Shown here: positions 13,874 to 54,126 of the stretch, in pieces
Layout of the letters: each line of letters begins with the position of its first letter
How positions within the stretch are numbered: position 1 is the stretch's first letter
DNA from: Botryllus schlosseri
Lineage: Eukaryota
Length of the DNA stretch: 64,000 bases
Assembly: GCA_051294905.1 (NCBI GenBank)
Contig: CM119371.1
Coordinates: 26,600,001 to 26,664,000 of the forward strand
Direction of reading: 5' to 3'
Notes under the pieces: model-generated
Told to the model about the DNA's origin: nothing
The model's database searches: none
What the model saw: only the letters and a program-made list of their open reading frames with translations
Made by a program: the position numbers and the translations under genes

Positions 13874-13884
13874 GCAGGTGTTCG

Positions 13885-15351
13885 TTACTGTTTGCTTGGG
13901 TGGGGAGAGTCAGCCTCCCCGCATCTTTCGCATGATCTGGGGTTAGCTCCTCCATCACTTCTTTTTAGTGTTCCGCAGCATCTCGTGACGTAGCATTCCG
14001 TGTTGCATGTGCCACATCGGAGTGTTCCCTCTCCGGTGCGTTGGTCTTCCGTTATTATGTATATATCTTCTTCGGTGCAACATGCCCGTATAGTATAATG
14101 TTTGGTTTTACATGTCATGCATATACATACCTTCCCATTATTTGTAAACGCTATCGGTTTATCGCACTTGAGACACGAGGCCGTTTCGACTCCCTCAGTT
14201 GAAAAACTGAAATTCTTTCTTGCTGGTTGATGGCCACCCTCTGAGTCCGTACTGTCTCTTGGCCTTTTATGTCTTGCCGAGTGCCCGTTCGCTTGATCCG
14301 TGGTGTCGTGGGTGTCATACACTTCTTCCGACAGTGTGAACCAGTCTGTAATTTTCTCCGATTCCACGCTGTCTTCTTCCGTTTCTGTTGTTTCTGCCTT
14401 GGTGGACATATTTCTTGCACTTTCCACTATATCCTCTACTTCCTTTTGACAGCTTGGCTTTGTTTCGAATGGCTTTTGGTCCTTGCCCTGCTTCTCCGTT
14501 CCGCTCTGTGATTCCTCCTCGTCTATTTCACTCTGCGTCGGAGTTCCTTTCTTGTTACCATATATGGATGTTGTGTCTTCTTCCGCCCTTGCGAGCGTTG
14601 TTTCGCTCTGTTTGGATACGTCGAACGGTTGCTCTCCTGTGCCCTCCTCCGTCGCTGGTCTCTCATTTCCTTTTATGGTCATGGCCTGGACCTGTCTATT
14701 CCTCATAGCCGCTCCCTTTTCCCGAGCGTCCTCTGCCGTTTTAGTGGGGTTGTTTGGGCATAGTCGTGCGATATGCCCTGGTTGTTGGCAGTTACCACAC
14801 GTCGCAATTTGCCCCCTATATTTAACCGCGATTTTGTGTCCGTCTATCCATATATAGCTGTTGACTGGATTTCTTTCGATGTATTTTCGCTGTATGAGCA
14901 GGCTTCGTACTCCATTGTTTATTCCCAGCGCGTTCCTTTGTTGGTGGATGTTTTGTATCGGTCCGTGATGTTCGATGAAGTACTCCCTTATTCTCTCATC
15001 GGTCACTCGAGGGTGAACCCAGCTGAGGTATATTGCAATATTTTCCGACACATAAAGCCAGTGGGCTGGGAGGCTTTCCCCGTCTTTCTTCATCTGTGTG
15101 ATCCTCCTTTCTATATTCACAGCCATCTTTCTTTCTCTGAATATCAAATCCGTTTGTCCATTGGGATATTGCAGCATCCCCTCCAATTCCTCCTTGTTTA
15201 TTCCAATTTTGTCAAACAGTTCCAACAATATGTCTGTGCTGGTCATTCCTCTCAGCTTTAGTCCCAAATCGCATGATCTGTCTATCAGTTGCCTCCCTCC
15301 AGCTACATTCGCATACGTGTTTTGGGCAGAGCCCCTGTCTTCCTGATTCAT
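13885..15351 (-). CDS. ORF1: RRM-like region, CCHC zinc knuckle, acidic linker, Cys-rich C-terminus (first ATG 15351)
   Basis: NGVR and VKYRGQ..TCGNCQQPGHIARLC typical of Tx1/L1 ORF1; 11-nt spacer before ORF2. Confidence 0.92.
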   Translation of the reverse strand: MNQEDRGSAQNTYANVAGGRQLIDRSCDLGLKLRGMTSTDILLELFDKIGINKEELEGMLQYPNGQTDLIFRERKMAVNIERRITQMKKDGESLPAHWLYVSENIAIYLSWVHPRVTDERIREYFIEHHGPIQNIHQQRNALGINNGVRSLLIQRKYIERNPVNSYIWIDGHKIAVKYRGQIATCGNCQQPGHIARLCPNNPTKTAEDAREKGAAMRNRQVQAMTIKGNERPATEEGTGEQPFDVSKQSETTLARAEEDTTSIYGNKKGTPTQSEIDEEESQSGTEKQGKDQKPFETKPSCQKEVEDIVESARNMSTKAETTETEEDSVESEKITDWFTLSEEVYDTHDTTDQANGHSARHKRPRDSTDSEGGHQPARKNFSFSTEGVETASCLKCDKPIAFTNNGKVCICMTCKTKHYTIRACCTEEDIYIITEDQRTGEGTLRCGTCNTECYVTRCCGTLKRSDGGANPRSCERCGEADSPHPSKQ

Positions 15352-15962
15352 TTTATCTTCCCTATCCCACGTCAAAATTTAACATGCTTCGATGTTCCTC
15401 TCAAGGCAATCAGTCTTAACATAGAAACGATGTTCACCAAATTTGGTTCAATTCCAACCAGTGGAAGCGGAGTTATTGCCTTCGGAAAATGTGGATTTGT
15501 ATATAATAGTATTTACGGTGGGCACCACTTTAATTATAGATAAGATAATTAAGATAATTAAAGAATTGGTCACCGTAACGGCGTAAATACTATTTTATTC
15601 GTAATCCAAATTTTCCGACGATAATAACTCCGCTTCCAGTGGTTGGAATTGAACCAAATTTGGTTAGCATCATTTCTATAGACAACCCAACACTTTCATG
15701 GGGTGAACAGAAAATTTTCAAATTTTTTGTTATTTATTTTTATATAATAAATAGAAACTTTCTTCTCCTGTAGCAATGCGGCTACTGGTTGAAATTGAAC
15801 CAAATTTGGTGTGTGTGTGTGTGTGTTTATTAGGTAACCTCACAATTTTATCAAGTAGCCACTGCGATTTGAGAAAAAACGTCGTTTTTGAAGAGCCCTA
15901 GTCTACAAACTATCTGATAGAGAAACAACGAATTCACGTCTAGATACAAGCTGGTAGAGAAT

Positions 15963-29601: not shown

Positions 29602-31455
29602 ATGGCGAGTTTCGAAGATGTAAGTGCAAAGAGAAAGTCTGATGTGTGGCAACACTTTTTGTTTTGTAAATAGACAGAAAAGGCTAAATGCAATTTGTGT
29701 CAAACTATCTTGAAAGCTTCAGGGTCAAGCACAAAGAGACTGATGACGCATTTAAGGTCCGTACACAAGATAGTAGTTAAATCATGCATGGCTCAATCAT
29801 ACCCGTCCAAGAAAGATCAGCCAAAAATGAAGATGGGGAAGATCGATTCCTTTTGTAAAACGCATAAGCCTCCCCTCGATCAACTTATTAGCCAACTAAC
29901 TGCTGTGGACGGGCTAACATTTAATCAAATTGCTCAAAGTGAGCGAATTCGCAGGGCCTTCAAGGCTGACGGCTATGACTTGCCAAGATCTCACAAACGA
30001 GTTCGGGACTTGGTTATGGAGCACAATAAAATAATTCGCAAAAGTGTGGGAGAAGAGATTATGGCAATGAAACGGAATAATGGGCGTTTTTCAATCACGT
30101 TGGACGAATCAACATCTACGCGGAACAGGCGGTACATGAATTTAAACGCTCATTATTATGGTGGCTTTCGATCGCTGGGTTTCATACGTATTCACGGGAG
30201 CATGAATTCGGCAACGGCAATCAAATTGGTTGAAGAAAGATTGGAATCCTTTGGCATGAATCTGAACACAAATGTAGTGGCAACAGTCACCGATGGCGCA
30301 AGTCTTATGGTAAAATTTGGAAAAGACACCAGTCCTTACCATGTGACTTGTTATGCCCACGCGATCCATTTAGCTGTTTGTGACATTCTGTATATAAAAC
30401 ATACGAGAAGAGTACCTTCAACTAATGCAAATTGCTGCAAAATTGTCCCCGATTCCGCTTCGGATGATGAAGACGAAGACGAAGTCACTCCTTCACTGTC
30501 ACCTAACCTGCAGAACTTGATTAAGAAAGTGCGCGAAACTGTCAAAATCTTTAGACGTTCTCCCGTCAAAAATGACGACAATCTTCAGCCGTTTGTTGTG
30601 GAAGCTTTTGGAAAAGAGAAGATGCTTCTATTGGATTGTAAGACCAGATGGAACAGTTTGCTTTCAATGCTGGAGAGATTCTACGAGTTGAGGAAACAGA
30701 TCAAAATGGCGTTGCTGCAGCTTGACATTCAATTTGATTTGTCTGATGCAGAGTTGGAGGCAATTAAAGACATGTGTGAAGCTCTTGCCCCATTTAAGGC
30801 CGGTATTGACGCACTATCGAGCGAGGAGGCAGATTTGCTGTTATCAGAAAAGATAATCGCATTTATTTTCAAGAAGCTCGAACAACTAAATTCGGAAATT
30901 AGCAAGGATTTGAATAAAAGCTTTAGGTCTCGAATCGACCAGCGTCGGAATGTCGAACTGGTTCACCTTTTTGAGTACCTGAAGAATCCTTCCTACATTG
31001 ATCAAGAGAAGGATCAGCTTGGTCATAAAATAAAACGTCAGAAAATCGTTGCCTTGGCCACTGACGCTCTTCAAAGATTGTTTCCAAGCCAAACTATAGA
31101 AATGGATCGACAATCTGCGGAACAGCACGAAGATCCCTTTATTAGCCAGATTCCGCAAATGACATTGGCGCAAGAGCTGCATGCTTTCGTGACAGATGAT
31201 GAAAGTCGCCAAGAACAAAACGAAAATGTTGGCGCACGAGTACTACAAAAAGAAATGCTGCTATATGAAGCCAGCAAAAAACGGCCAGAAAACTTGAGCA
31301 AGTTATATGAATCAATGAAAACTATTAAGCCAACATCTGTTGAGGCTGAACGTGCGTTTTCAGCTCTTGGATATTTCGCCAACAAAATACGAAACCGTCT
31401 AAATGATGATACTCTTGATGCTCTCATGTTTTTGCGGCAATATTACAAGAAATAA
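29602..31455 (+). pseudogene. BED-finger hAT transposase with one in-frame TAG at codon 24; otherwise open (617 codons)
   Basis: MASFEDVSAKRKSDVWQHF..CK*..AKCNLC...THL..VH (BED); TLDES, VTDGA, CYAHAIHL, TRWNS, PTSVEAERAFS. Confidence 0.93.
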
Positions 31456-37321: not shown

Positions 37322-38164
37322 TACTGGTTAGAACTGAGCTAAATTTAGGTTATTTTAGAAAATCGAACAATTTTAAGAAGTAGCCTCCTTTTTGAGATTT
37401 TGTCCTCAGTTTTGAGAATTTTTGGTAAATGTAGGGCGAATTCGACGAAGATAACAGTAAATCAGCACTAAAGTAACGCTCCGGCGACTATTTCGGGAGC
37501 TGAGCAGGAAAGTTGACCTTTTTCTGGTCAACCACCTGATAATGTGAAAGCAAAACTGTACCTCTACATAAACGTTTATCTGTTGCAGACATGGGGTAAT
37601 CGTGATTAGTAATCGTAATCGATTACGACGATTACAGCATTTCCAAGTAATCGTAATCGCAATCGATTACATTCGAAAAAAATCAGAAGTAATCGTAATC
37701 GTAATCGACTACTTCACATATCTAATCGATTTCTTTGTGAAAGAACGATTACTTTTCATTTGTGCAATGCTCATGACATAAACTGAACTATGAACATTCA
37801 TGAGCAACGAAGAGTGTGATTTAAAACAGGATTTGGATAGCAGAAATGTCGGGTTTTCAAACGCCTCTATACTCATTATTGCGTCACAAGTATTAGATTC
37901 GTTCTTGATTGCGTAACGAATTATCCGCACGTAGTAAATAGATATTCGATGTAAATATTGTAGTACTGTGATTGTAAGAACACCCGCTGTGGATTATGTC
38001 ACTGCACTGATCGTTACATTGCAGATTGCACACGCCACCACCTCGCAGCAGGATAATAATCTCCACACGGCCTAGTTTCGAATAGTAATGCATATGTACA
38101 AATTGTACATTGTACAATCTATAGATGTTTTGTTGAACCACAGTCTGCAGCAAGCGCTTCACCC

Positions 38165-38212
38165 CGGGGGAGGTTTACTGCGGTTCCTCCAGACCCCTAA
38201 AATAATAAAAAA
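38165..38212 (+). mobile_element. 3'-terminal fragment of the 417-bp structured unit plus A-rich tail
   Basis: ggaggtttactgcggttcctccag...cccct matches the 3' hairpin of the units at 53.3-54.1 kb. Confidence 0.85.
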
Positions 38213-38232
38213 TATTTGGTTGTATTAAGGTA
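38213..38232 (+). ncRNA. Partial spliced-leader exon + donor (left TSD of element B)
   Basis: tatttggttgtattaag|gta; identical to the 3' 17 nt of the SL recalled for stolidobranch ascidians; repeated at 53130-53149. Confidence 0.7.
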
Positions 38233-38237
38233 GCAAC

Positions 38238-39472
38238 TAGGGATGGTGTGAACGTGAGGTTCACGTTCGCGTTCTGTGTGTGAACCTCGGAAATTAAGAG
38301 GTTCGCGTTCACAACAGAACCTTTGGTAGGATCTGCACTGTGAACCTTTTTTGGTAAATTGTAATTTGCACTTCATAAATAAGATCTTCGGTTAAAATTT
38401 ATTGCATTTCAACTGCGGGTCACTCTATGCATGGCACTGGCAGCATAAAAAATCAACACTAAACGAGCATGCACCTTGACAACATTGAAAATTTTACTCG
38501 CTTTTTTTGTTACAAAAAATTTCTCGAAATTTCCAGCTTTCCGTTTGTGAATATTTAGTGACTCTCTGCTGTGAGCTTGACCTGCAATCAGATAGTGTAA
38601 TGGTTATGCGTCCGACTTCTCGAGCGGTAGGTCGTGGGTTCGATCCCCGGCCGGGTCATACCAAAGACTGGAAAAATGGTATCCGCAGCTATCCTGCTAG
38701 GCGCTCAGCAATCACGGATAGCATGGAGGAGAAAAAAAACGGGGGCGCAGACTAGATGACCTCATGGGGCCGTATCGCAACTCCGTCGCCAAAGCATCTC
38801 GATGGTGCAGGCGAGAAAGAATATCATATCTCTCTCTCTCTCTCTCACATCACGAGCGAATGATGCTTATTCAGCGAATCAATAACATTGATATCGTTTT
38901 CTGATGTAAAAAATCGAGTGGGCGTACGGGGTCAATCTTGACTTCATATCTTTACTGTATCATTAAAACTAAATCCGTGCGATTAAGGTGCTGGCTACTG
39001 CTATATAACTTGTTGTTTATGGTATCGGTAGGGAGTATGGAAACCCGTTTTACACTCTGCTCAATATCAATGTAGCAATACTCAGACTCCGAACACATTG
39101 TCCGGTCTGGCAAAGACCGTTAAGGCGTAAGCTTATAGGCCTATTCCCTGGTAAGTCCTCGTCGAAATTCTTGGCAAAGCGACGGATTGTATTGATTTTA
39201 TGAGATAATTATATGCCTTGATAACCGCGGTTGATACATTTAGCGACGTTTAGAACGCCAATATGTACTTCAGCAATGTGACATTATGTGGCCCGAGTGT
39301 TCGCTAGGTATCGTGTACAATGTACATTAATATAGGCTATCACTTCATTGAAAGATATGGTTGGAATTAGCAATATGACGTCACGAGGTTCACGTTCGTG
39401 TTCACACAGAACCTTTCAAAAAGGTTCGCGTTCACACGAACCCGAACCTTTCAGAGGTTCACACCATCCCTA
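38238..39472. mobile_element. hAT MITE at the 5' junction of element B
   Basis: TIR tagggatggtgtgaac; perfect TSD gtagcaac. Confidence 0.93.
38580..38846 (+). mobile_element. tRNA-derived SINE with a MetaSINE-like core
   Basis: A box tagtgtaatgg, B box ggttcgatcc, core ggtcataccaaagactggaaaaatggta...gcgctcagca (family resemblance from memory), (tc)n tail; absent from the paralogous MITE near 24380. Confidence 0.75.
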
Positions 39473-39589
39473 GTAGCAACCACACGTGAGTTTACTAACG
39501 GCTATTTACAGGATCGAGGAACGTACCGGAGCCGCTTGGGCATTAGTTAACTACCGTAACTCTTAGTTTGTACCTAGGGATTTAAGTAG

Positions 39590-40899
39590 GCTACCCACTT
39601 CTGTCTTCACTCTTTTCGCCAACGTTCGGACTTCACCTTCGAGTCTCCTTCAGACTCTCCAGTTCTCCCTCGCCAGGACTCGACTCCTCTGGTCATAGAT
39701 GCAATACGAACGCACCCAACACTCGCTGAACACAAGGATAACATCCTTTCTTTGTTCCAAATAGGCAGGAACACTTGCAATCTAACGTTTCCTGCCGACG
39801 CACCGATAGAAAGATTGAAAAGGATCTTTCTGGACACAATACACAACGGGATTGTCACGGAAAAAGGTACAATACACATTGAACAACCCAGACTGCCCAC
39901 GGTTAAAATAAATGTTAGAGCGGTCCCGACGGAAGTCGAAGAAGCCGAAATCAGAAAGAAATTTACCAAATACCAATGTGGTACGATCAAGGAGATCACC
40001 TTGATATACCACCGAGGTACAAATATCCTTAACGGATATAGACAGGTAGCAATTGAGAACTACACACCAGGCAGAATACCGCCCTTCGTCTACTTGGGCA
40101 GGGCTCCTTGTAAAATCTACCTTCCAGAAGAAGACACAACAAACCAAACGTGTTACAGGTGTCTCCTTCCAGGACACGGCTCCAAAGACTGTCCGAACCA
40201 AACTGCATGTCTTATATGCAAGGAATACGGACACAAAAAAAAAACTGCCCGAAAAACAAAGACGATGCACCAATACAACAGACAACACAAAAAGACCCCA
40301 CAGATAAGAACACAAACAACAACTCTAGTGCAAGAAGACTCTTGCAATACGAGCCGGTGGCTGAACTAAACAGAGAGAGATCTGACGTGATACAACAAAC
40401 ACAACAGACTCAATTAAGGGAGAGAGACGCCACCCCATTGACACAATTCTTACGAAATAGCGCCAACACCCAAGAAACAATGGAACAAATGGAAAGTGCA
40501 GAACAAAACACTGACGAACAACAAACAGACGAGGAAAAACAAGATGAAAACGACACGTTAGATCTTTTCAGAGAAATTGCCGAAAGCGGCGACACACCTG
40601 AAAAGAATGAGCATGACACGACAATTAAACCAGGAACGCAAGATGAAGAAATTAGTAGCGGAAGCACTAACGAAGGGGACTTGGTCCTAGTAACAAGTGA
40701 GGATGAGGCCGGATCCCAGGTAGATAACACCAAACACCAAGCAAGCGGATCAACCTCGATATTAAGAGCGAAATTTGAAAACCGTACCTTCACGGCGGCA
40801 GAATTTTTCGGGGCAACCCGCTCCCCAAACAAAAGGAGCAGGGAAGAGCAAAGCCCGACCGACAAACAAAAAAACCAAAGAAGAAAAGCCAAAAAATAA
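39590..40899 (+). pseudogene. Element B ORF1 (two CCHC knuckles), frameshifted in an A-run at ~40240; no in-frame ATG before the knuckles
   Basis: NGYRQV..., CYRCLLPGHGSKDC, CLICKEYGHKK/NC across ORFs 39752-40369 and 40150-40899. Confidence 0.88.
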
Positions 40900-40930
40900 A
40901 TAACCCTGTCTCCTATCCTGTCCAATTCCG

Positions 40931-41824
40931 ATGGCGATTAATGCCATATCTCTGAACGCCAATGGAATGCAAACACATTGGCACAAAATGAAAAATTTAT
41001 TTAGAAAGGAAAAGAACTGGAATATAATATGTGTCCAAGAGACACACAGAATAGACATAAGGAGAATTGAAAAATGGGCACAACAAAACGACGTATTATA
41101 CTTTCCAAACCACATAAACATAGGCCAAAACTGGACAGACCTGGAAGAAAATAAAAAACATTACTACAGAGGTACAGCAATATTCGTTAAAAAGGAATTA
41201 CAAACAAAGTACAGCATAGATCACTCGATACTGCGACAGGATAGGGCACAGACGCTACGCTTAACTGGAAAGGAAACGAACGACATCGCTACCCTATACA
41301 ATGTGTATGGGCCTAGCGATGTCGGAAAATATCAAACAGACTTCTACAAAGATCTGATTAGCCACATTGAAAACAACACCCCAGAGAGCGCCATTATCTG
41401 TGGCGACTTCAATATCGTCACAGATAAGCTAGATTCCAAAAACACCGAGAATTTTAAACTGACGCTAGCCGCCAAAATTTGGAAAAACTTTGTAGATGTC
41501 TACAAAATACGAGACGTATGGCGTTGGCGAAACCCAACTAAAAAACTATATACTATAATGAAGGCACTGCAATCAAGGCGAATTGACCGAATATACGTAT
41601 CAGAACGCCTCCTCGCAAGAGTGAAGAGCGTATCATATAAACTCAACACCATCTCTGATCATATATTCTTGCAGCAAATCCAAATCAAAACACCAAATAA
41701 CAACAAATGGGGTCATGGTATTTGGAAAAACGATACCAGACACCTACAAGACGAGGTGCTGTATACCAAAATTAAAGCAACCCACCAGAGGTGCACAGAA
41801 CAGCCCAACAAACACAAAACCGTA
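40931..41824 (+). pseudogene. Element B ORF2, APE endonuclease part
   Basis: NANG, VQET, NVYGP, GDFN, RRIDRIY, SDH, WK motifs. Confidence 0.93.
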
Positions 41825-43339
41825 AAAGGATCATCCGGGATCATCTCGATTAGGTTCTGATTTTCTAAGTGTCGAGGGAATGTCTAAAATACGTAGTAGG
41901 ATGGTCTTGTGGTTATATTCAATCAGAATAAATTCATACTCGGTGTTGTTCCATCTCATGCATTAGGCTTCGTTATATCCGGTAGTTAACCTAATAATGC
42001 AAATTTTCTATCTCTCGCTGGTATGACTAAAATACGTAGAAAGGACGACTTTGTCGGTACATTCAATCATGATGAATTCCCATCCGGTTTTGTTCGATCT
42101 CATGCAGTAGCTTCGTTCTATCCATTAGAAAACAATGTTCTCCCTTCGTTTTATTGCGTGAGGATGTCACCGGTGTTGTATATTCGTGTTGTTGCTGTAA
42201 GGTCGAACAGTTTTGTTTTCTTCTGATATATATGATCTTCATTATATATATCCGCTCTTTCGGTAATCTCGCATGTTCAACGAGTATGGCTAATAGTTTT
42301 ATTCAGAGAATAACTAAATAAGTGAGATGTTGTACGTTTAGGAATATGATTATCGATGCGTGACTTCTAGAATATTTCGGCGATTCAAATTTTACGTCAT
42401 CGCGCCGGACAAAGATTTGACGCGCAACAGGTCTCAGCCAGGCATAGTTCGCTCTTTCTGTATGGTAAATGCCGTAAATATATAGGAATTGTGACTGACT
42501 GAGGTAGCGGGTTAAAGGTATATACGCAGTAGCATATAGCTTATGGGGTATTTCGAATTGCCTGTAGTATATGACGCCTAGAGCTGTTTGACTTTCTGCA
42601 AAACAGGTGTAGACAACTATAGAAAAGTTTCCGCTTTTCCAGGTTAGAATTATAGCTAAACCGTTTTTTCCGAATTAGATTACAATCATATCAATCAATC
42701 AATCATTTATTTGTCACACCAGTGAAAATCCGGTACGGACCAGGATGACGACGAGGGGCCGCAAGGCCTTAGTACACAGTCGCCACCTGAAAATATTGCT
42801 GGCATTTCGCTCTAATTTAGTGAAATTAGACCACTATAATTATCTAGTTGTCCAAGTCGCTTCAAACATCTGAATTACCGGTACCTATAAGCCTACCTAC
42901 GGTATATCATAATATTTATGCTTGAATTTTCTAGGTACATAAGTCAAGTCATATAGATACATACCTGTTGAACACTGATTCGTGATTTTATAAAAGTTGG
43001 TGCAAGAATGGACATTTCAACTTGATGTTGATTAATGGAGCAAAATTTGATATTTGAGTGCAATTATACCTCGAATCAAGTGACAAGATTAATAATCATT
43101 AAAACCAAACGCAGCTTGTGTATGTTGGCCCAGAGAATTTGGCTAGCCAGATCATATTGATAGAATATGGTCACAGTAAGATGAAATTTTGGGCTATTTT
43201 ACATGAACTTTCCTACATTTGATTTGATATGTCCGCTGAAACAGTTGTTATTTTGCTTTCGAATAAGACCTAAATTGCTGGTTTCAATGGTAACTGTGTT
43301 TGTCAAAGGCTGTAAAGGTAATTTCTTTTCCATGTTAGA

Positions 43340-44456
43340 TGTTTGTTTGTTTGTTTGTGGTGTTCATGGTGGTGGTTCGACTACACTGGTCATTTTACAC
43401 CAGGCTGGTTCTTATTATTATCATTCCTATCTGCCCGATTACCAGTGAACTCGGCACTTAGTGAATTCGGCCGCACAAACTCGGCACTTGGTGAATTCGG
43501 CCGTGGTAGATCTCGTAGCGGTACCGGTCACCATGATTGGTTACTGGAATGTTTGCCGGTGAACTTGGCACTTTGAGTGGTTGTCAATGTTGTAAGGGGG
43601 TCAGGGCATGCGTAGATCACACAGTCACGGCGTGATTAGATCACAGATTGCGTAATCGCGGGAAATAACGCGACGCTCTTCACTTGGTGAACTCGGCTCT
43701 GGAGGAATTGGCACTAGAACACCTTCGCATTAGAAATGCATTTAATATGAATGAACAGTATCAAAAAGGAGATTTAAACGTGTCGTGGCTCGTGGTAGAT
43801 CTGGTAATTTTGAGTGGAATCGTCTCTCCAAAGGCAAAAAATAATTTATTTTGACGTGATCATGCGAAACATTTGTTGATGAGGAACAATGGCTTGTCGT
43901 GATCGATAAACGAAGAAGTGCCGTTTGATCTTCCACAGTTTCCATCTCACATACAACGCCAAGATCCATCTTCTCAAAACTTACACGACACAGGCCCGTC
44001 ACTCACGCCATCAATTCCAAGCAGACCGCGCGTGGTCAGTATATGAGCGCTGCGTTATTTCCCGCGGCTACGCAATACGTGATCTAATCACGCCGTGACT
44101 GCGTGATCTACGGATGCCCTGACCTGACAAGATTGACGAATCACTTGATAATACTATTATTAGTTTGATAATTCATATTAATAGCTGTAAATACACTTCA
44201 TTTCAAAATTTCCTGAGGGCCGAATTCACCAAGTGCCGAGTTCGTGCGGCCGAGTTCATCGACAACCATCTGCCCACTTATAGCACGGCCCACTCCCAGG
44301 CTTTTTAAGACATGGCTATGCGGATCAGATGGCGAGGAGGAGCCTAGATAAACGGCCAACACTTCTGTAGGAATTATGGAGTCGACGTGTCAGGCTCGAA
44401 CCCGCAATTCATTGGTGTTTAGCTATAATGGAACGTACCACTACGTTTCCTCGCCA
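43340..44456 (-). mobile_element. Old tRNA-derived SINE interrupted by a TIR element
   Basis: Minus-strand B box gggttcgagcc near 44400; (aaac)n tail at 43341-43357. Confidence 0.55.
43437..44267. mobile_element. Long-TIR element (gaactcggc/gaattcggc repeats) with an internal ~100-bp inverted repeat
   Basis: TSD atctgccc; inverted blocks 43575-43680 / 44045-44147. Confidence 0.8.
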
Positions 44457-44904
44457 TACCTTGTAAAATGAGACCGTAGCATTTGGCATTTCGTGTGGCA
44501 ATTGACTTTTGTGTGGAAAATTGTGTTCGTTTTAGAACTTATCCGAAACTTTTATCCCGCCATAGATTGTATATGATAAAACGATATCGGAATTGATCCT
44601 AAAAGAATTCCAAAGCCACTCTCCACAAAGGAGGATTTAAAGAAGTTTGATGACAAATTGAATGAAAGCAAAAGCCTTTGCGAGAGCTGTGGTATGTTGA
44701 ATCTGTTTTGTTATTTTTAAATACTTTGTTGTGCCGATAGCAGACGGTATATATAAACGTAAGATGTGGAAGCTATCAAGGTGTTACGTTTATTATTTTT
44801 AGAAATTCAGTCAGTCAAAGTGGACGATCGTATTGCTTGGATTATATTTAGGCTTATTTCAGCATCTTTGAGATGCAACTCTGAACGTGGACGGTCATGA
44901 ACAG

Positions 44905-45169
44905 TAGGGCTTTTTAGAAATATCTTTTTTTTTTAAATCGTACTGGCTACTTGATAAAATTGTTAGGTTACAGGTGAACAGAAAATTTTAATAATTTTTA
45001 TTACCTATTTATTTTTATGTGATAAATAGAAACTTTCTTCTCCTGTAGCAAAGCGGTTACTGGCTGGAATTGAACCAAATTTTGTGTTTAGGCTTGAATT
45101 AGGCAACCTAACAATTTTATCAAGTAGCCAATACGATTTGAGATAAAAGGTCATTTTTGAAGAGCCCTA
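44905..45169. mobile_element. Internally deleted copy of the tagggctcttcaaaaa MITE
   Basis: Perfect TSD atgaacag. Confidence 0.9.
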
Positions 45170-45446
45170 ATGAACAGTCAACTAATTCTGTTCCTATATT
45201 GACATATCAGACATTTGCACTCAGTACCGTTGGCGGCGACAATATTGTTCGGTCAGCAAGAATCATCATGAAGAAGGTTGCCAATCTGGTGTAATTATAG
45301 CAGAGTCGGAAAGAATGGGAAATACGCTTTCATCAACCTCTATTTGAACAAGATCACATATAGTAAGTGACATTCATGATATGCTGCAAATGTGACTGTG
45401 TTCTTTGTCTAGTCACCCCACTCATGTAACTATTGAGGCTTCATGC

Positions 45447-46409
45447 CAGGGTTGTAACTGGGGCTGGGCACAATGTTTCGAGTACTCGAATCTGAATCGA
45501 GTATTAATTTTAATGATTTGAGTCGAGTAGTAAAAGACGATTTTTTCGAGTACTGAAATTATACTCCCCTCTACACTGCAAGGTAATTTAACAAAGAGAA
45601 TTATAGTTTCGATACTAATTATCCCTGTAGAAGCCTTGAAACCTTGATTGGCCGTATCGTAGCATACAAAACATATAGTACAAAGCTACGAACGTTACTG
45701 GAAATAATTCATTTCCGAAGTCATGATCATCCCACAACATTGTCACCAAGTGCAATGAAATCAGCATGGTCGAAAAATACCAAAGTATCTTTCATTTGAT
45801 GGATACCAGGAATAATAGTCTTTGTCGTCGCTTAAAAGGAACATATTTGAATTTTGACATATTACATTCTGTTGTGACGTCATAATGAGTGATACTCGAT
45901 TACGAAGCATTTTACGTGATTCAGAATCGAATCACTCAGGTACTCGATTTTGCCCAGCCCTAGTTGTAACCAAGTCACAAGGCTCCGAGTCACAAGTCAA
46001 TCTCACTTTTATAGTTTTGACTCGAGTCATTTTCAATTCACCACCGAGTTATGGTATTATGACTCGAGTCAGAGTCTAAGTCATTGTGTTAGCTGCTCAG
46101 TTTTCAATTTAAGTCCTGTTAAACCAGCTTTTTACATTTTTTTGTGATATCGAGTGGGTCGCATTTATAATATACTAATTTTCCTTACATTGAGCAGTTT
46201 CTGGTCACACTTTCAAATACCAGTGTCAATAGACGAAATCCCAATAGCAGTTTACTGTACTATTCTTTGAAATAACCATGAAATGTCGGTCTTGGCCGTC
46301 TGAGTCTCAAGTCATGCGCAATGAGTCAAGTCATTTCCCTACTTTGAGAAGATGACCTGAGTCAAGTCGAGTCGACAGAAAATCATGACTCGAGTCATTA
46401 CAACAACTG
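45447..46409. mobile_element. gactcgagtc-family hAT MITE with a second MITE (45459-45962, TSD gttgtaac) inserted in its TIR
   Basis: Outer TSD cttcatgc; inner TIR tggggctgggca / tgcccagcccta. Confidence 0.9.
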
Positions 46410-48032
46410 CTTCATGCAATGAGCATTTACTTTGAATATAAATAGTAATTGAATAACTGGTTGGTGGTACAAAATTTTGATACTGCTTTCAAAAGTACCT
46501 TCATGATAAACGTTATTGAAACCCGAAGAACAGTATGACAGCGTGACACAATTCTTTAATTATTTATTATAGTGGTGCCCACCGTAAATACTATTTTATT
46601 CAAATCCAAATTTTTCGATGGCAATAACTCCGCTTCCAGTTGTTTGAATCGAACCAAATTTGATGAACATCGTTTCTATACATAACCTAACACTTACATG
46701 GGGTGAACAGAAAATTTTCAAATTTTTTAAGAGCCCTAATGTCCATGTCAGAGAAACGTTTAAGGGTAGGCCTACTCACATGTCTCGCAGCGTTCTCTAC
46801 ATAATTGTCAATTGCGATACAAACTGTTCACTTGTATTGGTAAAGCCATCTAACTTCGAATTGTAAAATGTTGGGAGTCTTGAAATCAAATTTTTGAAAG
46901 GTGCACTCTGAGAAGATTTCGGAATCTGTCAAATTATACAAAAAATTTTAACAAATTCTTTGACATATTTCATCTATTTGGGACTCGATCAACGTAAAAG
47001 AATTGTTAATTATTTTATACAATATATTGTAGTTGAAGTATAGTAATAATACTTATGGTTACCGCACTTGTAACGATTCACGGCCATAACTGCAATAATT
47101 AGAATGATGTAACTTTCAAATTGTCATGCATTTTGCAACAACATTGTTCTCAATTTTCAAGGTGCTGACCATTGGAGGAAGAATCACCCTTAAGCCGGGA
47201 ATTCACGATCCGTAAACGCGTCCGACTGTTTCTCTCCTCAAGCGGAAGCGACAGAGAAGAGGAACGAAGAGAAATAAGGAGCAGAAATAGCAAGAGTATG
47301 ACAAGTCGCGTCCGTTCGCTTTAATGCGTATTCACATCCGCGAAGCGCTAAGTAGTAGATGGGAAAACTAATGGAGCGTTTGGTTAGCGCTTATATAAGG
47401 TTGACTCCAGCGCTGTATTTGCTAAATGTTGCGGTGAAATAGGGGTGGTGTCATTTGGTATCAATATTGACTATTAAAAGACAATTTGTTAGTGGTCATG
47501 GATTTGTTTGGCCAGTATGCAGTAATTTCTGATGGTCACTTCCCGGGCTTCTGTTGTCTAACCCCTCATGATAGTTATTCTGCTTCTAGTAAGACTGTCG
47601 ATTCTAATCTTTTATCGTATCATTTGTCGGAGGTTTCGCTCGCTTTATTTACAACGTTTTGCTCTCTGCTAGGTCAATTACTTTCCTGGCTGAGTATCAC
47701 TACAGCCTAAGAAACTGCACTAATTCTCATTTTAATGTCTTGTTGGTTATCTTGCTGTCAATTCTAATAATTTGGTAATGTCTATACCAGTGCAGCCACT
47801 CAAATGTTTTGTTCTCTGTACACAATATTGTTAGGTCTTCAGCTAACCAGGCAGAGTATCATTCCACTTTCTAGACTCGAGTATTTATCTCTCCAACCTA
47901 ATCCTTGCGTACTGTGCCATAACTGTTACATAAACCTTTCTGTCACTGAATCCATGCAATCCGCTGACCTCAGTATCTACTTCCATAATATGATGATATT
48001 TGGATGTTCTTGGTTCGGTCTATTGACTATAT

Positions 48033-49659
48033 CAGTGGTTCTCAACCGGTGTGCCGCGGCACACTAGTGTGCCATTTACGTCTCGCAAGTGTGCCGCGAG
48101 CGATTTATTCGAGAAGTTTGAAATTATTCGCTAAATAATTATAGTCTATATAGCAAACGATCAATAATCAAAAACGGGCACGATGTGAATGAAGCTTGTA
48201 CAGTACATTTGACAGGTCAAAATCATCATCATGCCTGCAATCAATATCCCTCGCAAATTTGCTTCACCCGACATAGCCTGCTTGGAATGTTGCAATAAGT
48301 TTTGCACATTGCGTTGATTAAACGCGGAGAAGAGCAGACATGACGGCGCCTATGACAATGCAGTTTTCAAATCCTCATCGTCCTCCTAATCATCACCGAG
48401 AAATGAATTCCTTTGGAAATGATGTTCACGGTTACAAATTCGAAGTACAGACAATAAACATCCATATTGCGATTGTTTGGCAGCGTGTCGGCACTACTGT
48501 TAAAATGTAGGCTATGAGCGCAACGTTATGTTACCGGCGACGACATTGAAAATTGAGAAGAAAAGTTGATCTGATTACATCAGTTACCAAATTGCCCGCC
48601 GCTGCGGTTATTATCCAGATTTTTGGAACTATTATTGAACTGCTGGTGGATGACACTGCCAGTAGAAGTATTGAGGTATTGCTATCGTCACGCGTGCTAT
48701 ACGATCTTCGTGGAAATGCGTTTGGCATCCTTGTGTGTATTTGTATATACTCCTCTAAGCAGTGGTGGCTTTTGGGGTGGGCGAGGTGGTCGGTCTTCCG
48801 CCTCCACTGGTCGACGGGCCCCCCTCTTTAGTTTAAACACTTTTTTCAAGGGTTAGAGCGAATAGACGTGGAAATCCGTCAGATGGGTCAATCATCAAAT
48901 CTCTGCAGTTGTTAGAAAGGTCCCATATCCCGATAATCATCAAGTCTCTACATGCGGTAGAGGTTCTTAGTTTTGATGTAGTCTATCCTTGCAACCATGC
49001 GATAATAGATATGACCTAATCCAGCGCCTGGCTCAAACCTTGACGTGGTATGCTGGCTCATTAGAAATGTCAGCCGATAGCTTTCCAGATTAGTGTGGTC
49101 ATTTAGCCTGCAGCAGTTGTATCACCATTCTATTTAGGCCTGCTTCAAAGCCGTGTTATAGTGTCATATACACATCACGTAATTCCGTTCCAGATGGCGC
49201 ACTAATACTAAGTTGGTAATAATAGACGCGAAATGGGGGTCTGGGATGCGGAGACCCCGGAAGCTGCGATTTCATAGTCTCGATCAGCCCTCCCCCAATC
49301 GTAGGGCCACAAGCCTATAAGCATCGTTATTCGTTTGTGGCGATCGGGCTTGGCCTCTTCGATGCGATGATTAATTACATCGACAATGCGGTAGTAGGCA
49401 GGTATTTGTGACACGACCGCAGATTCAGAAGATTACGTAATTTCTTCTTTGAAGTTGAGCAAATCCTACTTGACTGATCGTAAAATGTAGAAGTACTTCG
49501 TCAGATACCGCGTCTGCACAACTGTGGGTGCCGCTAAGTACGCTGGTTGTTTTCAGGTGCCGTAAGCTAAAATATGTTGAGAAACACTGTGCTAGTGTGC
49601 CGCGAACTATTTATCCTTTTCAAAGGGTGCCGCGAGGTCAAAAAGGTTGAGAACCACTG
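48033..49659 (+). mobile_element. Non-autonomous hAT (Charlie/Buster-like) element
   Basis: TIR cagtggttctcaacc; perfect TSD gactatat. Confidence 0.92.
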
Positions 49660-50245
49660 GACTATATAGTAAACTTTTCATGTGCTGTATCCTAATATGT
49701 ATGGATATTTGTCATAGTAACTGTAATATTTTGTATCTGCCTACACTTGAAAGCAATTTTATTACTCATTGCAGAGACATATTATCCACTCAGTTAAGTT
49801 TCTTGATTCTCGTTTTATTGTATTGTTAGTTGTCTTGGCTTTTTCTATAATGTCAATTCTAATTTGTTTTCGCTTCTCCAACTCATTTCATGTTATTATC
49901 TGTTTTATGATCTTTATATAATACAAAGTAATGGGTAGTGGATACCATTGCATATGTGACGGCATGCTATTATGATCAGGTATGCTTAAATAGGTGAAGC
50001 AGGAAGGGAGTGTGTCAGGGTGGTCTTTTAACCAGCGGATCTACATCCCACGCGCTGATGAAAACGCTGTAGTATATGCGTAATATTTACATTCTTGAAA
50101 GACATGGAAAAGACATTAAAACGAGTCGACAAAAAATCCCCCTTTCTACGACCTGCCGAGATCTAATATCTACTATATCGACTCAGCTTTTCTACATCTT
50201 TGGTCTGTAAAGTGTTTACTGGGAGAAACCACATTTCAATGACGT

Positions 50246-52738
50246 GTACTAATGGTGGGATTACCTCAAAAAGGAAATGAAAAAACAGCTTAGCTGGCAA
50301 AAGAAACTCGAAAAAGACAATAAAATAAAAGCGCTACAAGAAAAAATAAGACGCATACAAAACCAACAAAACCCGGATGAGAACCCAATCGACGCAGTTA
50401 AAGAACTAAAAAGGCTCGAGGATGAAGAGATACGGCATCAATGCCAACTTCACAAAATAAAAGATATAGAGGAAAATGAAAAACCTACGAGGTATTTCTT
50501 CCAGAAACTACAACAGCGAAGGGAAAGTAGAATCCTCAGCTCCGTAGTAAACGGAAACGGTGCAGAAGTCACCACCAAAGAAGAAATCCTAGATACGGTG
50601 GAAAATTTCTACACAGATCTGTGGAGCAAATCAATGAACGCAAACGCATATTTACAAACTAAATACCTCGATACGGTTAAAGAGATCAAGATCACCCCCG
50701 ACCAGCGGGAAGATCTTGAAACTCCGATTACGGAAGATGAAATTAAGTGCATAATCCAGAAAATGGACAACGGCAAGACACCCGGACCAGATGATCTGGC
50801 CAAGGAATTCTACGTTGCCTACTATAATCTGATCAAAAGTGACCTCCAGGAAGTTTTAAACAACTCATACCTCTTTGGAGGTATATGTAAAACATGGTCA
50901 GGAACTAAAAAACTGGAGGCCTATTACCTTATTGAATACTGATTATAAGATATTAACTGCAATGCTAACAGCAAGACTCACACCTATACTTCCGAACATC
51001 GCCAACGAAACGCAAAAATGCGGCATAAAAGGAAGACAAATACCAGAAGTGCTGAGGAACACCAACGCTGCAATAAAATACGCGAAAGAAAGAGGCAAGG
51101 AACTCCTGGTAGTCAACCTTGACCAGGAAAAAGCATTTGATAAAATTAACCACCAATATCTGCACAAAATCCTGGAAGGATACGGACTGCCCTCTCATTT
51201 CACGAAATTAATCAAAAATATCTACAGCGAAGCTAGCAGCAGAATCTTAGTCAATGGAGCTCTAACAAATAAAATAAAACTAGGAAGAGGCATAAGACAG
51301 GGATGTCCGCTCAGCATGAGCCTTTACGCCATCTGTAGTGACCCCCTGGCTAGGCTTATAGAAAAAAAACCGAACATCGAGGCATTCAGGATAGGAGGTA
51401 CCAAAAAGAAAATCCAGCAATATGCGGATGACCTCACTTGCTACCTAACGCGAGAAAAAGATATCGATCTCATATTCCAGGAATTCGAAAGATGTGAACG
51501 TGCAACGGGCCAAAAACTCAACGCACAAAAAACAGAAATTTTGCACATAAAACCGAAAGGGAGCATCCCAACCCAGAAAACAAAATATCAAGAACTCACA
51601 AAGCCGAGCATCAAAATACTCGGACAACATTTTGGCATAAATCAAATTAATGACACATGGGATATGAGAATCATGAAAATAAAGCGAGTACTCTCAGCCT
51701 ACAAACACAGGAAATTGTCCTGGGTAGGGAAGAAAACTATACTGAACTCTATTGCCGCGAGCCAAATTATCTATGATGCCCGAGTAATCCCAATGCTAAA
51801 AGATCAGCAAAAACAAGTCGAAAAGCTATATTTTAACTTTCTCTGGAATCCACTCGAAAAAAACACTTATCGCAGAGAAGGATAAAGGAGGCTATGATAT
51901 ACCTGACGTGGAATCAAGAAATAAAGCCTGTGAACTCGAAAAAATCCAAATACTGAAAAAACTTGATAAACCCACCGAATTTTGGCATCAACACACAATA
52001 TACGAAATTGGAACGAAAATAAAAGAAATCAACGATAAACTATACAAAAACAGCGAACCACATAAATATCCCACCCCAAAAAACTGGATCGACAGCATTG
52101 ACATCAGCAAAAAAATAGATTTCGACGAAAAAGAGTGGCAAGACGCCACCCACAAATCCTTATACAAGGCAATAAAAAGCCTAAAGGAAAATCGTCCAGA
52201 AATCAGAACCGAAAGGGGGGACAAAATCAATTGGAATAAAATAAATCGAACCAAGTATGGAATTTACAAAACCATCACAAACGAAGAATCGATTATTAAC
52301 TATAAAACGGCACACAACGCATATATATTTGGAAACAAAAAAAGAAGCCGAAATCTCACACACTCCAACACAGGAGTAGCACTAGACCTAAAATGCAAAT
52401 TCTGCAACGCAAATGATGATGACGTGATACATATTCTCACATCATGCAACAAGAAAAATCCTAACCCAGCTAGAAAACATCGTGGGGAGGAAGCTGAACA
52501 CAAACAACATCTTATATAACATTGGAAACCAAAAAACAGACTGGACAGTGGACAGTACTGTCCATATATAAAAAATCAATCATAAACTTCAAAATAGCAT
52601 TAGACATAGAAAACCGAAAAGTCGCAGACGAAAATATAACAAAAAAAGATAATCACAATAATTAAAAAACGAGTCAGCCGAATAGAAGCTGACTCACACA
52701 CACGCACGATACTCGGCAAAATAGACATGATAACGTAA
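50246..52738 (+). pseudogene. Element B ORF2, RT and zinc-finger part (several frameshifts/deletions)
   Basis: KTPGPD, NWRPITLLN, GIRQGCPLS, QYADD, CKFC....DVIHIL..C spread over ORFs 50277-50942, 50875-51885, 51908-52519. Confidence 0.93.
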
Positions 52739-53129
52739 TACACGTGAGCAGGACAACAAAATATGAAGAAAGCATAACACCCCCTAAAGTCGGGTCCCAA
52801 ACGAAAGTTTGGCCACCTCAACTAAAATTAAGGGGGAAAAAATGTCTTCGGGCGAAAGGGGAGGGGCCGAAAAAACCTCTAAACCACTCGCGTCCGGCGG
52901 GCAGCCTCTGACCCGTAAACGAAAATACGAAGAGAATGATGAGAATACCAACCTCAAACATTGGAGTATTTGGTTGCACTAAGATACAAGCAAACCTACT
53001 CCCTCGTGATGAGTATGCATGGCAACGCGCCATAACCACCGAAAATAAATAGAGTAAACAAGAAAAGAAGTAACCGTTTAAATTAAGTTCGAAAACCGTT
53101 CAAACACCTTATTTAAAAAAATATATATA

Positions 53130-53159
53130 TATTTGATTGTATTAAGGTAAGCATCGGCT
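53130..53159 (+). ncRNA. Partial SL exon, splice donor and start of putative SL-RNA intron
   Basis: tatttgattgtattaag|gtaagcatcggct. Confidence 0.7.
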
Positions 53160-53281
53160 GTGTCTGAGATTTTTATGAATTGTGAAGTGTGCCTGAAAAT
53201 AGAGATATATATATTCCTGTTATTTGTATTGAAATTCTTCCTGGAATAAAATTGGGATCGCTGCGGCGACCGAAAAAAAAA
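53160..53281 (+). mobile_element. 5'-truncated retroelement 3' end
   Basis: aataaa, short hairpin, A9 tail, perfect 12-bp TSD taagcatcggct (53148-53159, 53282-53293). Confidence 0.85.
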
Positions 53282-54126
53282 TAAGCATCGGCTTACTGGA
53301 CGCTGGCCGGTGCGAAACCCTAGTGGTCCAACCATAATACTTCAATCACTCTCACACCCAGGAGAAGTATGGCCGTCAGGCCTTCATGCTCCGAACCGGG
53401 ATCTGTGTCAGCTTGACTGGCCAGTATCCCAGTCACAAGTATGGTGGCGGCGGGACAAGCCTCCGCAGACGCCCCCAGCCAAAGCCTGCTTGTGACAGCT
53501 GTTAGTACCAACAAGTTGAAGAGAAACTTTGAAGGGAAAACAGAACCAGAAGCAACCTTGTGGGATCTCTTGGGTACTTTGGACCCAAGAGTGACCTATA
53601 AAGGCGCTTGTGGCAATAGCAACATGGTGTAGTGCCATGCGGCTGCCACAAGCGTAACGGGGTGGAGGTTTACTGCGGTTCCTCCAGGTTACCCCTAAAA
53701 AAAAAAAGCATCGACCTATCTGGCTGATGCGAAACCCTTGTGGTACAACCGATACTTCCAATCACTCTCACACCTCGGAAGAGTATGGCCTTTTAGGCCT
53801 TCATATTCCGAACCGGGATCTGTGTCAGCTTGACTGGCCAGTATCCCAGTCACAAGTATGGTGGCGGCGGGACAAGGCTCCGCAGACGCCCCCAGCCAAA
53901 GCCTGCTTGTGACAGCTGTTAGTACCAACAAGTTGAAGAGAAACTTTGAAGGGAAAACAGAACCAGAAGCAACCTTGTAGGATCTCTTGGGTACTTTGGA
54001 CCCAAGAGTGACCTATAAAGGCGCTTGTGGCAATAGCAACATGGTGTAGTGCCATGCGGCTGCCACAAGCGTAACGGGGTGGAGGTTTACTGCGGTTCCT
54101 CCAGGTTACCCCTAAAAAAAAAAAAA
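53282..54126 (+). repeat. Two tandem ~417-bp structured, poly-A-terminated units (SINE-like)
   Basis: Unit 1 53282-53707, unit 2 ~53706-54126; multiple hairpins; A11 and A13 tails; both begin aagcatcg. Confidence 0.92.

Follow-up and report, generated by a model that had tools for sequence, protein, structure and literature searches.

Two nested units and their neighbours in the window

The stretch of Botryllus schlosseri DNA considered here, which is 64,000 nucleotides long and is referred to below as the window, contains two head-to-tail SINE units that repeat with a period of 417 and each carry a poly(A) tract (Table 1), as a first-pass annotation made from the letters alone had described. 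In an alignment of the two units, 83 of the first 110 columns and 306 of the last 308 are identical, which upholds the earlier statement that a 3' portion of ~310 nt is nearly identical and that the 5' portion differs. The 3' part is ~99% identical in this pair and in the pair at locus L101, and 82-88% identical in other tandem neighbours. The longest ATG frame in the units is of 63-76 codons, so that the absence of a credible ORF is confirmed, and their description as highly structured also holds, as both units fold better than all 100 of their dinucleotide shuffles (z -4.95 for unit 1 and -6.71 for unit 2). The stems listed in the first-pass annotation are present in unit 1; however, the second of them (53337-53343 with 53364-53370) is absent in unit 2, and hence the differing 5' portions do not keep all of the stems. 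This stem also lacks support across 35 copies, in which 78.8% pairing is seen versus 78.1% in shuffles (57/500), and its strands pair elsewhere, viz. 53364-53370 in helix P3 and 53337-53343 in the anti-SL stretch. In an Rfam search, which had been proposed earlier, no family reached the gathering score over the window units (best weak match E 0.12), and the scan of one complete copy of the family gave nothing relevant, with no U1/U2 match and no ribozyme. A reading of the head as a hammerhead was rejected, since the core motif is not in place and scattered one-mismatch matches are all that is seen.

The exon missing from both window units was removed by nested insertions at the donor. The 11-bp duplication (53148-53158 / 53282-53292) resulted from the insertion of a LINE one base into an SL donor, and the LINE piece that it encloses (53158-53281) is matched by 20 other loci from about query base 29, where the match runs upstream into a LINE 3' UTR. 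The assignment of 53130-53281 as an SL RNA gene is ruled out, as this segment is a LINE 3' piece within a duplicated target. The third 3' end that had been noted earlier is also real (~38138-38198) and abuts base 8 of an SL exon.

Table 1. Positions of the features described in the window
Feature	Position	Strand	Evidence or remarks
Sister-subfamily tail (5'-truncated, A-rich tail)	38138..38212	+	87% match over 38166-38211; left end by eye versus L167/L168
Start of LINE family A: remnant SL exon with donor	38213..38237	+	Same head in L114-L119, L187, L231
Broken, interrupted L1/Tx1-like LINE A	39590..53120	+	ORF1 39590-40899, endonuclease 40904-41860, reverse transcriptase 50860-51885
SL exon remnant (exon bases 8-24, one substitution) and first donor base	53130..53147	+	Match to exon of complete copies; original head of the SINE train
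Left copy of the 11-bp target-site duplication	53148..53158	+	Identical to 53282-53292; same junction at other loci
5'-truncated 3' end of LINE family B	53158..53281	+	Terminal hairpin 53254-53272, poly(A) 53273-53281
SINE unit 1, exon lost, intron-derived start	53282..53696	+	Folds and alignment
Helices P2, P3, P4 of unit 1	53285-53313, 53361-53392, 53398-53430	+	Folding
Helix P5 of unit 1, then A-rich linker	53432-53496	+	Folding
Helices P6, P7 of unit 1, then tail hairpin to 53696	53567-53591, 53605-53654	+	Folding
Anti-SL stretch of unit 1	53323..53346	+	Complement of SL exon bases 1-21; predicted exon pairing in complete copies
P5 apical loop of unit 1	53463..53468	+	Complementary to tail loop 53673-53678; predicted loop-loop pairing
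Tail-hairpin loop of unit 1	53673..53678	+	All six bases recur in the 3' hairpin loop of LINEs B and D
Poly(A) of unit 1; its end lies in the donor of unit 2	53697..53707	+	Sequence
SINE unit 2, exon lost	53706..54113	+	Anti-SL stretch 53740-53762; loops 53880-53885, 54090-54095
Poly(A) of unit 2	54114..54126	+	Sequence

The neighbouring LINEs have two ORFs, with an ORF1, an AP endonuclease, a reverse transcriptase and a C-terminal zinc motif, as in Tx1-type elements. No named clade was found among 17 LINE homologues, and the putative label Tx1 refers to this anatomy only. Intact relatives of LINE B occur in a tandem array (L180, contig C205) with a period of 5686 bp and encode products of 329 and 1159 aa; in this array every copy is inserted at the head of the next copy. 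The LINE heads, both in the window (38213-39511) and at L114-L119, L187 and L231, consist of the SL exon, GT, a branch-point-like word and an acceptor. The leader intron of LINE A resumes after a MITE, with the branch-point-like word at 39493-39499 and the acceptor at 39510-39511. Judging from the sequence, removal of this mini-intron of 40-50 nt from LINE heads would provide the LINE mRNA with a normal leader; the SINE has no intron of this type. The MITE itself (38238-39472), located inside the LINE A head, is hAT-like; it ends in inverted repeats and is flanked by an 8-bp duplication (38230-38237 / 39473-39480). The window also contains a second, apparently intact L1/Tx1-like LINE (10439-15378, minus strand; 1156 and 497 aa), a hAT transposase gene (29674-31455, plus strand), five tRNA-like genes, two of them with introns (3545-7376), and tRNA-headed SINE-like repeats at ~36950 and ~38580.

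A dispersed family with a spliced-leader head

A search of the source genome gave 212 candidates, and the 40 of these that were scored contained at least 50 matches on at least 16 contigs, with 79-100% identity. Two divergent queries revealed further subfamilies, among which modules have been swapped. The complete copies are 341-564 nt in length (n=50), apart from one relative of ~760 nt, and copies of the family end in poly(A), with many of them truncated at the 5' end. Target-site duplications of at least 8 bp flank 21 of the 50 complete copies, in comparison to 0.73 (maximum 4) when the flanks were shuffled 200 times. The flanks of these copies all differ, and no upstream 20-mer is shared among the 50. 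The family is thus short (<700 bp), non-coding and interspersed, as SINEBase describes for retroposons of this kind. Longer or differently headed relatives (L070 of ~760 nt, L188, L202 and L204) share anti-SL, P3, P5-loop or tail modules with it, and L070 and L188 have in common an additional structured-looking module that is absent from the 417-nt unit. Pieces of the family are also present in contigs from sequencing runs labelled as organisms B and C, those from C being the same as copy L004 over 208 nt; judging from this identity, the run-C contigs may be DNA of the source species and hence unsuited as evidence of range.

The unit as drawn in the first-pass annotation is a genuine part of this family, but an incomplete one, as the 5' end of the family is the SL exon that the window copies have lost. 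Complete copies begin with a 24-nt SL exon, followed by a GT donor and ~11 fixed intron bases. In two RNA runs, 4128 and 4827 reads have directly before this 24-mer an oligonucleotide that we take to be the template-switch oligo, and because of its position the 24-mer is a real RNA 5' end. The exon and donor together have 29 exact matches in the genome, of which 24 are in the family, one in a longer relative, one in a retrocopy of a short SL RNA and three elsewhere. In the accessible text of PMC3795323, the same 24-mer is the 'Chordata 1' SL consensus. One member (L029) has in its head the start of a second type of SL intron, as expected if the head derives from a host gene. Based on these results, the unit is almost certainly a non-autonomous retroposon with an SL-derived head, which in complete copies is the whole SL exon; the earlier suggestion of such a head is borne out.

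The relationship of the family to the SL RNA genes themselves requires separate consideration. The short SL RNA is a separate molecule, in which the exon and the same initial intron bases are followed by a small hairpin and a U run; its exon and intron are joined in one contig, and its retrocopy has a duplication. The family has the exon and GT donor of SL RNA genes (GC in one subfamily, which kept spreading), but not their short intron with an Sm-like site, conserved upstream promoter and lack of poly(A); near the family donor no Sm-like site or U run was found. The assembly contains six copies of SL introns, of two types, all on contig C14, and from their sequence these would represent SL RNA genes. 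All six are preceded by a poly(A) tail, which is of LINE type in five cases and of the SINE in one. RNA from these six was absent among the listed read classes, and searches of the assembly gave no intact SL gene with a promoter.

Some additional SL-related sequences were observed. At two C14 loci (L252:8892-9586 and L253:5454-6176), the second-type intron has a U2 snRNA gene as its neighbour at ~450 bp, encoded on the other strand, and at L252 the U2 gene abuts what appears by eye to be the end of a LINE with a restriction-like endonuclease, presumably Utopia-like. An SL exon (~1501-1524) without an SL intron is present in families at L033, L035, L039, L041, L048, L049, L050, L053 and L057, which are termed LTR-like based on their shared upstream flanks. 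These have an anti-SL stretch 70-90 nt downstream, which at most 2 of 100 shuffles equalled, and from the sequence a convergent masking of the leader is possible. At L051, L052 and L060, identical SL-containing direct repeats are present in pairs 1.8-2 kb apart, and these are probably the LTRs of a small non-autonomous LTR element.

Both SINE and LINE copies show a recurrent cut one base into the donor, and it is seen in SL genes, in the heads of SINEs and LINEs, and in a further repeat that is unrelated but resembles the site (10 of 11 bases matching the donor region). Of 63 extracted units, 46 have the exon and 17 lack it (one of the latter being a false call), and 14 of these 17 follow a poly(A) at this same base. 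A script assigned 98 tails to 11 SINE heads, 8 LINE heads, 14 copies of the unrelated repeat and 65 other sites (33/98 donor-like). After correction by hand, in which one duplicate was removed, one doubtful case dropped and two missed rows added, donor-like targets account for ~34/97 (~35%) of the tails in what is a non-random sample, obtained by similarity searches and over-representing nested copies; about two thirds of the sampled copies are in unrelated sites. The insertions in the repeat are from different subfamilies and are therefore independent of each other, and their presence in a repeat that merely resembles the donor indicates that the cut is chosen on DNA. An SL exon mimic with a donor was also observed in LINE 3' UTRs (window 52960-52983; L187, L222, L227, L242, L253), and this mimic also takes SINE insertions (L020, L214).

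The six loop bases of the SINE tail hairpin recur in the loop of the hairpin with which LINE families B and D terminate. Beyond these six bases and their position, the SINE and LINE tails have no alignable sequence, and their tail hairpins are no more stable than shuffles. Comparison of the unit with LINE sequence in the window showed no similarity, and none beyond the loop was found with LINE 3' ends. A search for a LINE ending in the SINE tail, in which 40 of 144 candidates were scored and 30 loci fetched, revealed no such LINE, as upstream of the tail all 30 loci have either a SINE body or an unrelated flank. It is likely that L1/Tx1-like LINEs which target the SL donor copy the family into new sites.

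RNA structure and the expressed copy

A model of 77 base pairs for the 5' two thirds of the unit is paired in 89.7% of the cells over 35 copies, and changes on both sides of a pair number 127 in comparison to 48 +/- 5 in shuffles (0/500), for a model that was built on the fold of one member and a shuffle that ignores kinship. In regard to the covariation check that had been proposed earlier, all 500 shuffles were beaten by this model, and in a tree-aware test only one of 13,382 column pairs has E < 0.05. That pair, the best of all, is a predicted pair of P3 with three pair types, and no null value as high was obtained in 25 replicates; it is followed by a pair in P5 (E 0.08). Within the 3' part, the top three of 2,792 column pairs are all predicted pairs (E 0.10, 0.15 and 0.50), and RNAalifold on 30 copies shows two-sided change in 11 of 86 pairs. 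The helices are maintained by compensatory change across subfamilies that are 70-80% identical.

In the fold of a complete copy (z -6.07), bases 69-89 form a helix with exon bases 1-21 and the G's of the donor are also paired, with a predicted pairing probability of at least 0.95 for exon bases 3-9 and 13-20. In 21 of 25 family copies, and in none of three LINE heads, the duplex between exon and body beats 97 or more of 100 shuffles, and it is weak in the SL RNA retrocopy (7/100). The family RNA is therefore predicted by folding to enclose its exon and donor in an antisense helix. Since the exon side is invariant, this masking helix shows almost no covariation; donor base 26 and its partner have changed jointly in 3 of 35 aligned copies, and in two others the donor has changed but the partner has not. 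Complementarity between the P5 loop and the tail loop is seen in 59 of 91 tabulated tails, with three one-sided breaks and the rest mostly extraction misses. In the 505-nt subfamily, one pair of this contact has changed on both sides in 15 of 16 copies; as this represents one evolutionary event, the contact between the P5 and tail loops remains a prediction.

Expression was examined by placing reads on copy L004, for which the depth over the body is from hundreds to ~3000 in runs X20 and X21 (both from one study) and is 0-7 in X16 and 0-50 in X14, which are from two other studies. In X21, 4827 oligo-bearing reads start at SL +1, and of the reads there 2551 leave the copy after base 31 and 1491 after base 34. 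About 1320 reads continue into the body, and at most ~800 oligo-bearing reads would represent SINE RNA, a value obtained by subtraction rather than by counting read by read. By this subtraction, the abundant family RNA starts at SL +1. The reads are continuous from the exon into the body, and no splice joint from the donor is listed among the X20/X21 reads, so that the RNA is unspliced. The two points at which reads leave L004 (after 1505 and 1508) correspond to two abundant RNAs that consist of the SL exon, GT and 5 or 8 further matching bases. The RNA leaving after 1508 (3656 reads in X20, 1491 in X21) has a U run and an anti-SL-like end, and in two pattern searches it was not found in the assembly. 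A separate observation concerns the repeat in which L004 resides (L004:1300-1470 and 1925-2100), for which the depth is in the thousands in three runs; the site without the insertion is seen among the reads.

One haplotype accounts for 93-99 of 100 reads at those diagnostic sites that are listed, among them paired changes in P3 and the tail. Among 62 units, copy L251 matches this haplotype at 25 of 25 sites and the next best at 13 of 25, and two of three read extensions are unique to L251. This copy is at the end of contig C14, and its poly(A) runs directly into an SL intron, beyond which a U2 gene is located at ~450 bp on the other strand; a U2 gene is similarly placed at another intron of this kind. 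Only one base of the contig precedes L251, that base being A and not the G of a donor, and any exon and promoter of this copy would lie outside the contig. L251 could be the last unit of a tandem run. The window units, which are outside the eight best haplotype matches, are probably silent.

Proposed mechanism, alternatives and known systems

The SL-headed SINE-like family is real, structured and expressed. The reading that we prefer, and regard in its entirety as probable, is that of a promoterless SINE-like parasite which would be transcribed from SL genes, masked by its own antisense helix and mobilised by LINEs. A master copy inserted in an SL RNA gene would be transcribed from the promoter of that gene. 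Because the first bases of the element are those of its target, insertion at an SL donor would rebuild the arrangement of promoter, exon, donor and body, from which Pol II would produce an RNA starting at SL +1 with the SL cap. The dispersed copies would have no promoter and be mostly silent. The anti-SL helix would prevent the use of the RNA as a trans-splicing donor, by which the RNA would be beheaded, and the LINE ORF2 protein would prime in the A tract and recognise the tail hairpin. Two suggestions of the first-pass annotation are favoured by this proposal. Dependence on an SL promoter is favoured by the expressed haplotype being that of a copy in an SL RNA gene, the promoter presumably being that of the gene; mobilisation by Tx1 machinery is favoured by a target site and tail loop in common with L1/Tx1-like LINEs, where the name Tx1 again denotes anatomy.

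A more elaborate version of this mechanism, which with all its parts taken jointly we consider doubtful, is that of a 'leader-cloaked' parasite that would nest in SL RNA genes and exit the nucleus as a mimic of a capped SL snRNP, with the SL exon in front and the Sm site of the host intron behind the A tract, while the antisense arm would lock the donor. Its P5 loop would act as a switch with two alternative pairing partners, its own tail loop and, in trans, the 3' loop of the LINE mRNA, which is identical; the second pairing would capture the nascent reverse transcriptase. As a corollary, the independent anti-SL arms of other SL-headed elements in the source genome would represent a general means of escape from trans-splicing.

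The proposed transcription from SL genes should be weighed against several alternatives. If the family were a classical Pol III SINE, with an A box in the SL exon and a B box at 53309-53319, then any complete copy could be transcribed. The first-pass annotation had stated that tRNA A/B boxes are absent, and in regard to a tRNA this is correct (ARAGORN, 0/5 loci); however, an A-box-like word at exon base 3 and a B-box-like word at base 54 do exist with tRNA-like spacing, the latter (with one mismatch) in 42 of the 50 complete copies; as few as 8 of these 50 have a T run of at least 5. The words were scored against the A/B box consensus, in which the mismatched base of the B-box-like word is normally invariant, and the word is accounted for as being the 3' strand in helices P2 and P1c. 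Further, the 505-nt subfamily has spread without the B-box-like word and with T6-T7 runs, and the dominance of one haplotype, that of the SL-locus copy, is not what a mixture of dispersed copies would yield. We therefore consider internal Pol III transcription to be unlikely.

Alternatively, the RNA could be a domesticated structured ncRNA, i.e. a long SL RNA variant or a regulator of trans-splicing, with the dispersed copies as its processed pseudogenes. The high RNA level from one locus in a snRNA gene cluster, the compensatory changes in the helices and the intact SL exon and donor are all in accord with this possibility. However, it is quite unlikely in view of the numerous subfamilies, which are 340-760 nt long, have exchanged modules and have each given dispersed copies, and of the expressed copy itself, which is a poly(A)-tailed insertion ahead of an SL intron. 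The separate short SL RNA, the lack of an Sm-like site in the family head and the continued spread of the GC-donor subfamily also argue against it.

The SL head could also be absent from the transcript and be acquired whenever a copy inserts, if the reverse transcriptase jumps to SL RNA as its template, which is the origin proposed for SINEU heads; for SINEU-2, the available portion of PMC4494074 describes the addition of heads as recurrent, and extra partial SL pieces are present at several 5' junctions (L009, L013, L014, L184). However, the reads pass without a break from exon to body, the body carries the complement of the exon, and the junction is invariant, the head always ending ~11 bases into the intron, so that this origin appears very unlikely. 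Lastly, that the unit is the spacer of SL genes, or else that some longer LINE has it as its 3' UTR, the two cases named at the outset as refuting the element, is exceedingly improbable even though copies often adjoin SL sequence and LINE ends, as solitary copies have duplications of their own, in none of the 30 tail-search loci does a LINE 3' UTR lead into the tail, the 3' ends of LINEs have another sequence, and the DNA after SL introns differs.

The proposed mechanism of transcription from rebuilt SL genes has several implications. With it, SL RNA joins the few RNAs that form the heads of SINE-like elements, and it provides a testable answer to the question raised by SINEU of how a promoterless head of the snRNA type gets transcribed: where the head is the target sequence, landing in the host gene would rebuild a transcription unit, and the expressed RNA is traceable to such a locus. 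The SL RNA genes of a tunicate-type genome are also brought to light, with two intron types, one of them beside U2, and with all six that were found interrupted. A structured RNA that seemingly has an intact leader and donor and yet is unspliced offers a handle on the competence of the SL donor.

In the open literature that was searched, no SL-headed SINE was found, and the tunicate entries of Repbase/Dfam may hold the family. SL RNA is not among the SINE heads listed in the accessible part of PMC7245038, and term look-up in the available texts of this paper and of PMC10886601, PMC8457455, PMC6836712, PMC7986045 and PMC12582326 gave no SL-headed SINE. CELE45 was considered as a known example and rejected, as the portion of PMC8457455 covered calls it a putative Pol III SINE with no mention of SL. 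As regards the tRNA-, 7SL- and 5S-headed SINEs, the family resembles them, as outlined in the accessible SINEBase text (PMC3531059), in its length of <700 bp, non-coding nature, poly(A), duplications and modular head-body-tail mosaics, but it differs in having no tRNA, 7SL or 5S head and no established internal Pol III promoter.

Insertion into spliced-leader genes is known for SLACS, CZAR and CRE of trypanosomatids and NeSL of nematodes, which in the parts of PMC4640811 and PMC8869645 covered are autonomous elements with restriction-like endonucleases. In contrast, the presumed partner LINEs of the family have an endonuclease of AP type, their cut is located at the donor, and a non-autonomous passenger accompanies them. 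Relict spliced leaders, which are also found in dinoflagellates, provide another comparison. On flatworm retrocopies and retrotransposons, going by the available text of PMC12582326, DNA copies of the leader likewise front mobile elements, but these relicts comprise the exon only and stem from trans-spliced RNA, whereas the family keeps the donor and the start of the intron, and because of this it is not a product of trans-splicing.

The R2 SIDE and R2/R1 hybrid SIDE of Drosophila rDNA are, in the account accessible in PMC3414825, promoterless and non-autonomous, located at the site of the partner LINE in a multicopy host RNA gene and co-transcribed with it, features in which the family would resemble them. 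However, SIDEs are internal deletions of R2/R1 with a ribozyme that frees the 5' end, whereas the family is no deletion derivative of a LINE, has a host exon as its 5' end and no ribozyme match, and is dispersed genome-wide. SINEU are SINEs of crocodilians headed by U1/U2 snRNA, whose partners are Tx1-Mar LINEs (Kojima 2015, PMC4494074). To the extent covered by the accessible text of that paper, the likeness extends to a short non-autonomous retroposon with a spliceosomal small-RNA head, which in the family too would lack an internal promoter, to partner LINEs with the same heads and target preference, to tandem insertions and to a DNA-transposon-like repeat site; further, in place of the >20% of flanks in one target type that characterizes SINEU, the value for the family is ~35% of the 97 tails of the non-random sample. 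The family differs in having a head of SL exon and donor instead of U1/U2, and a target that is the head's own gene. In addition, its transcripts are detected and traced to one locus, whereas in the same portion of PMC4494074 SINEU transcripts were not found, the manner of SINEU transcription was left open, and neither antisense masking nor a covarying multi-helix body is described. Based on these analogies, SINEU and the R2 SIDEs appear to be the closest known systems, and the family described here is a member of neither.
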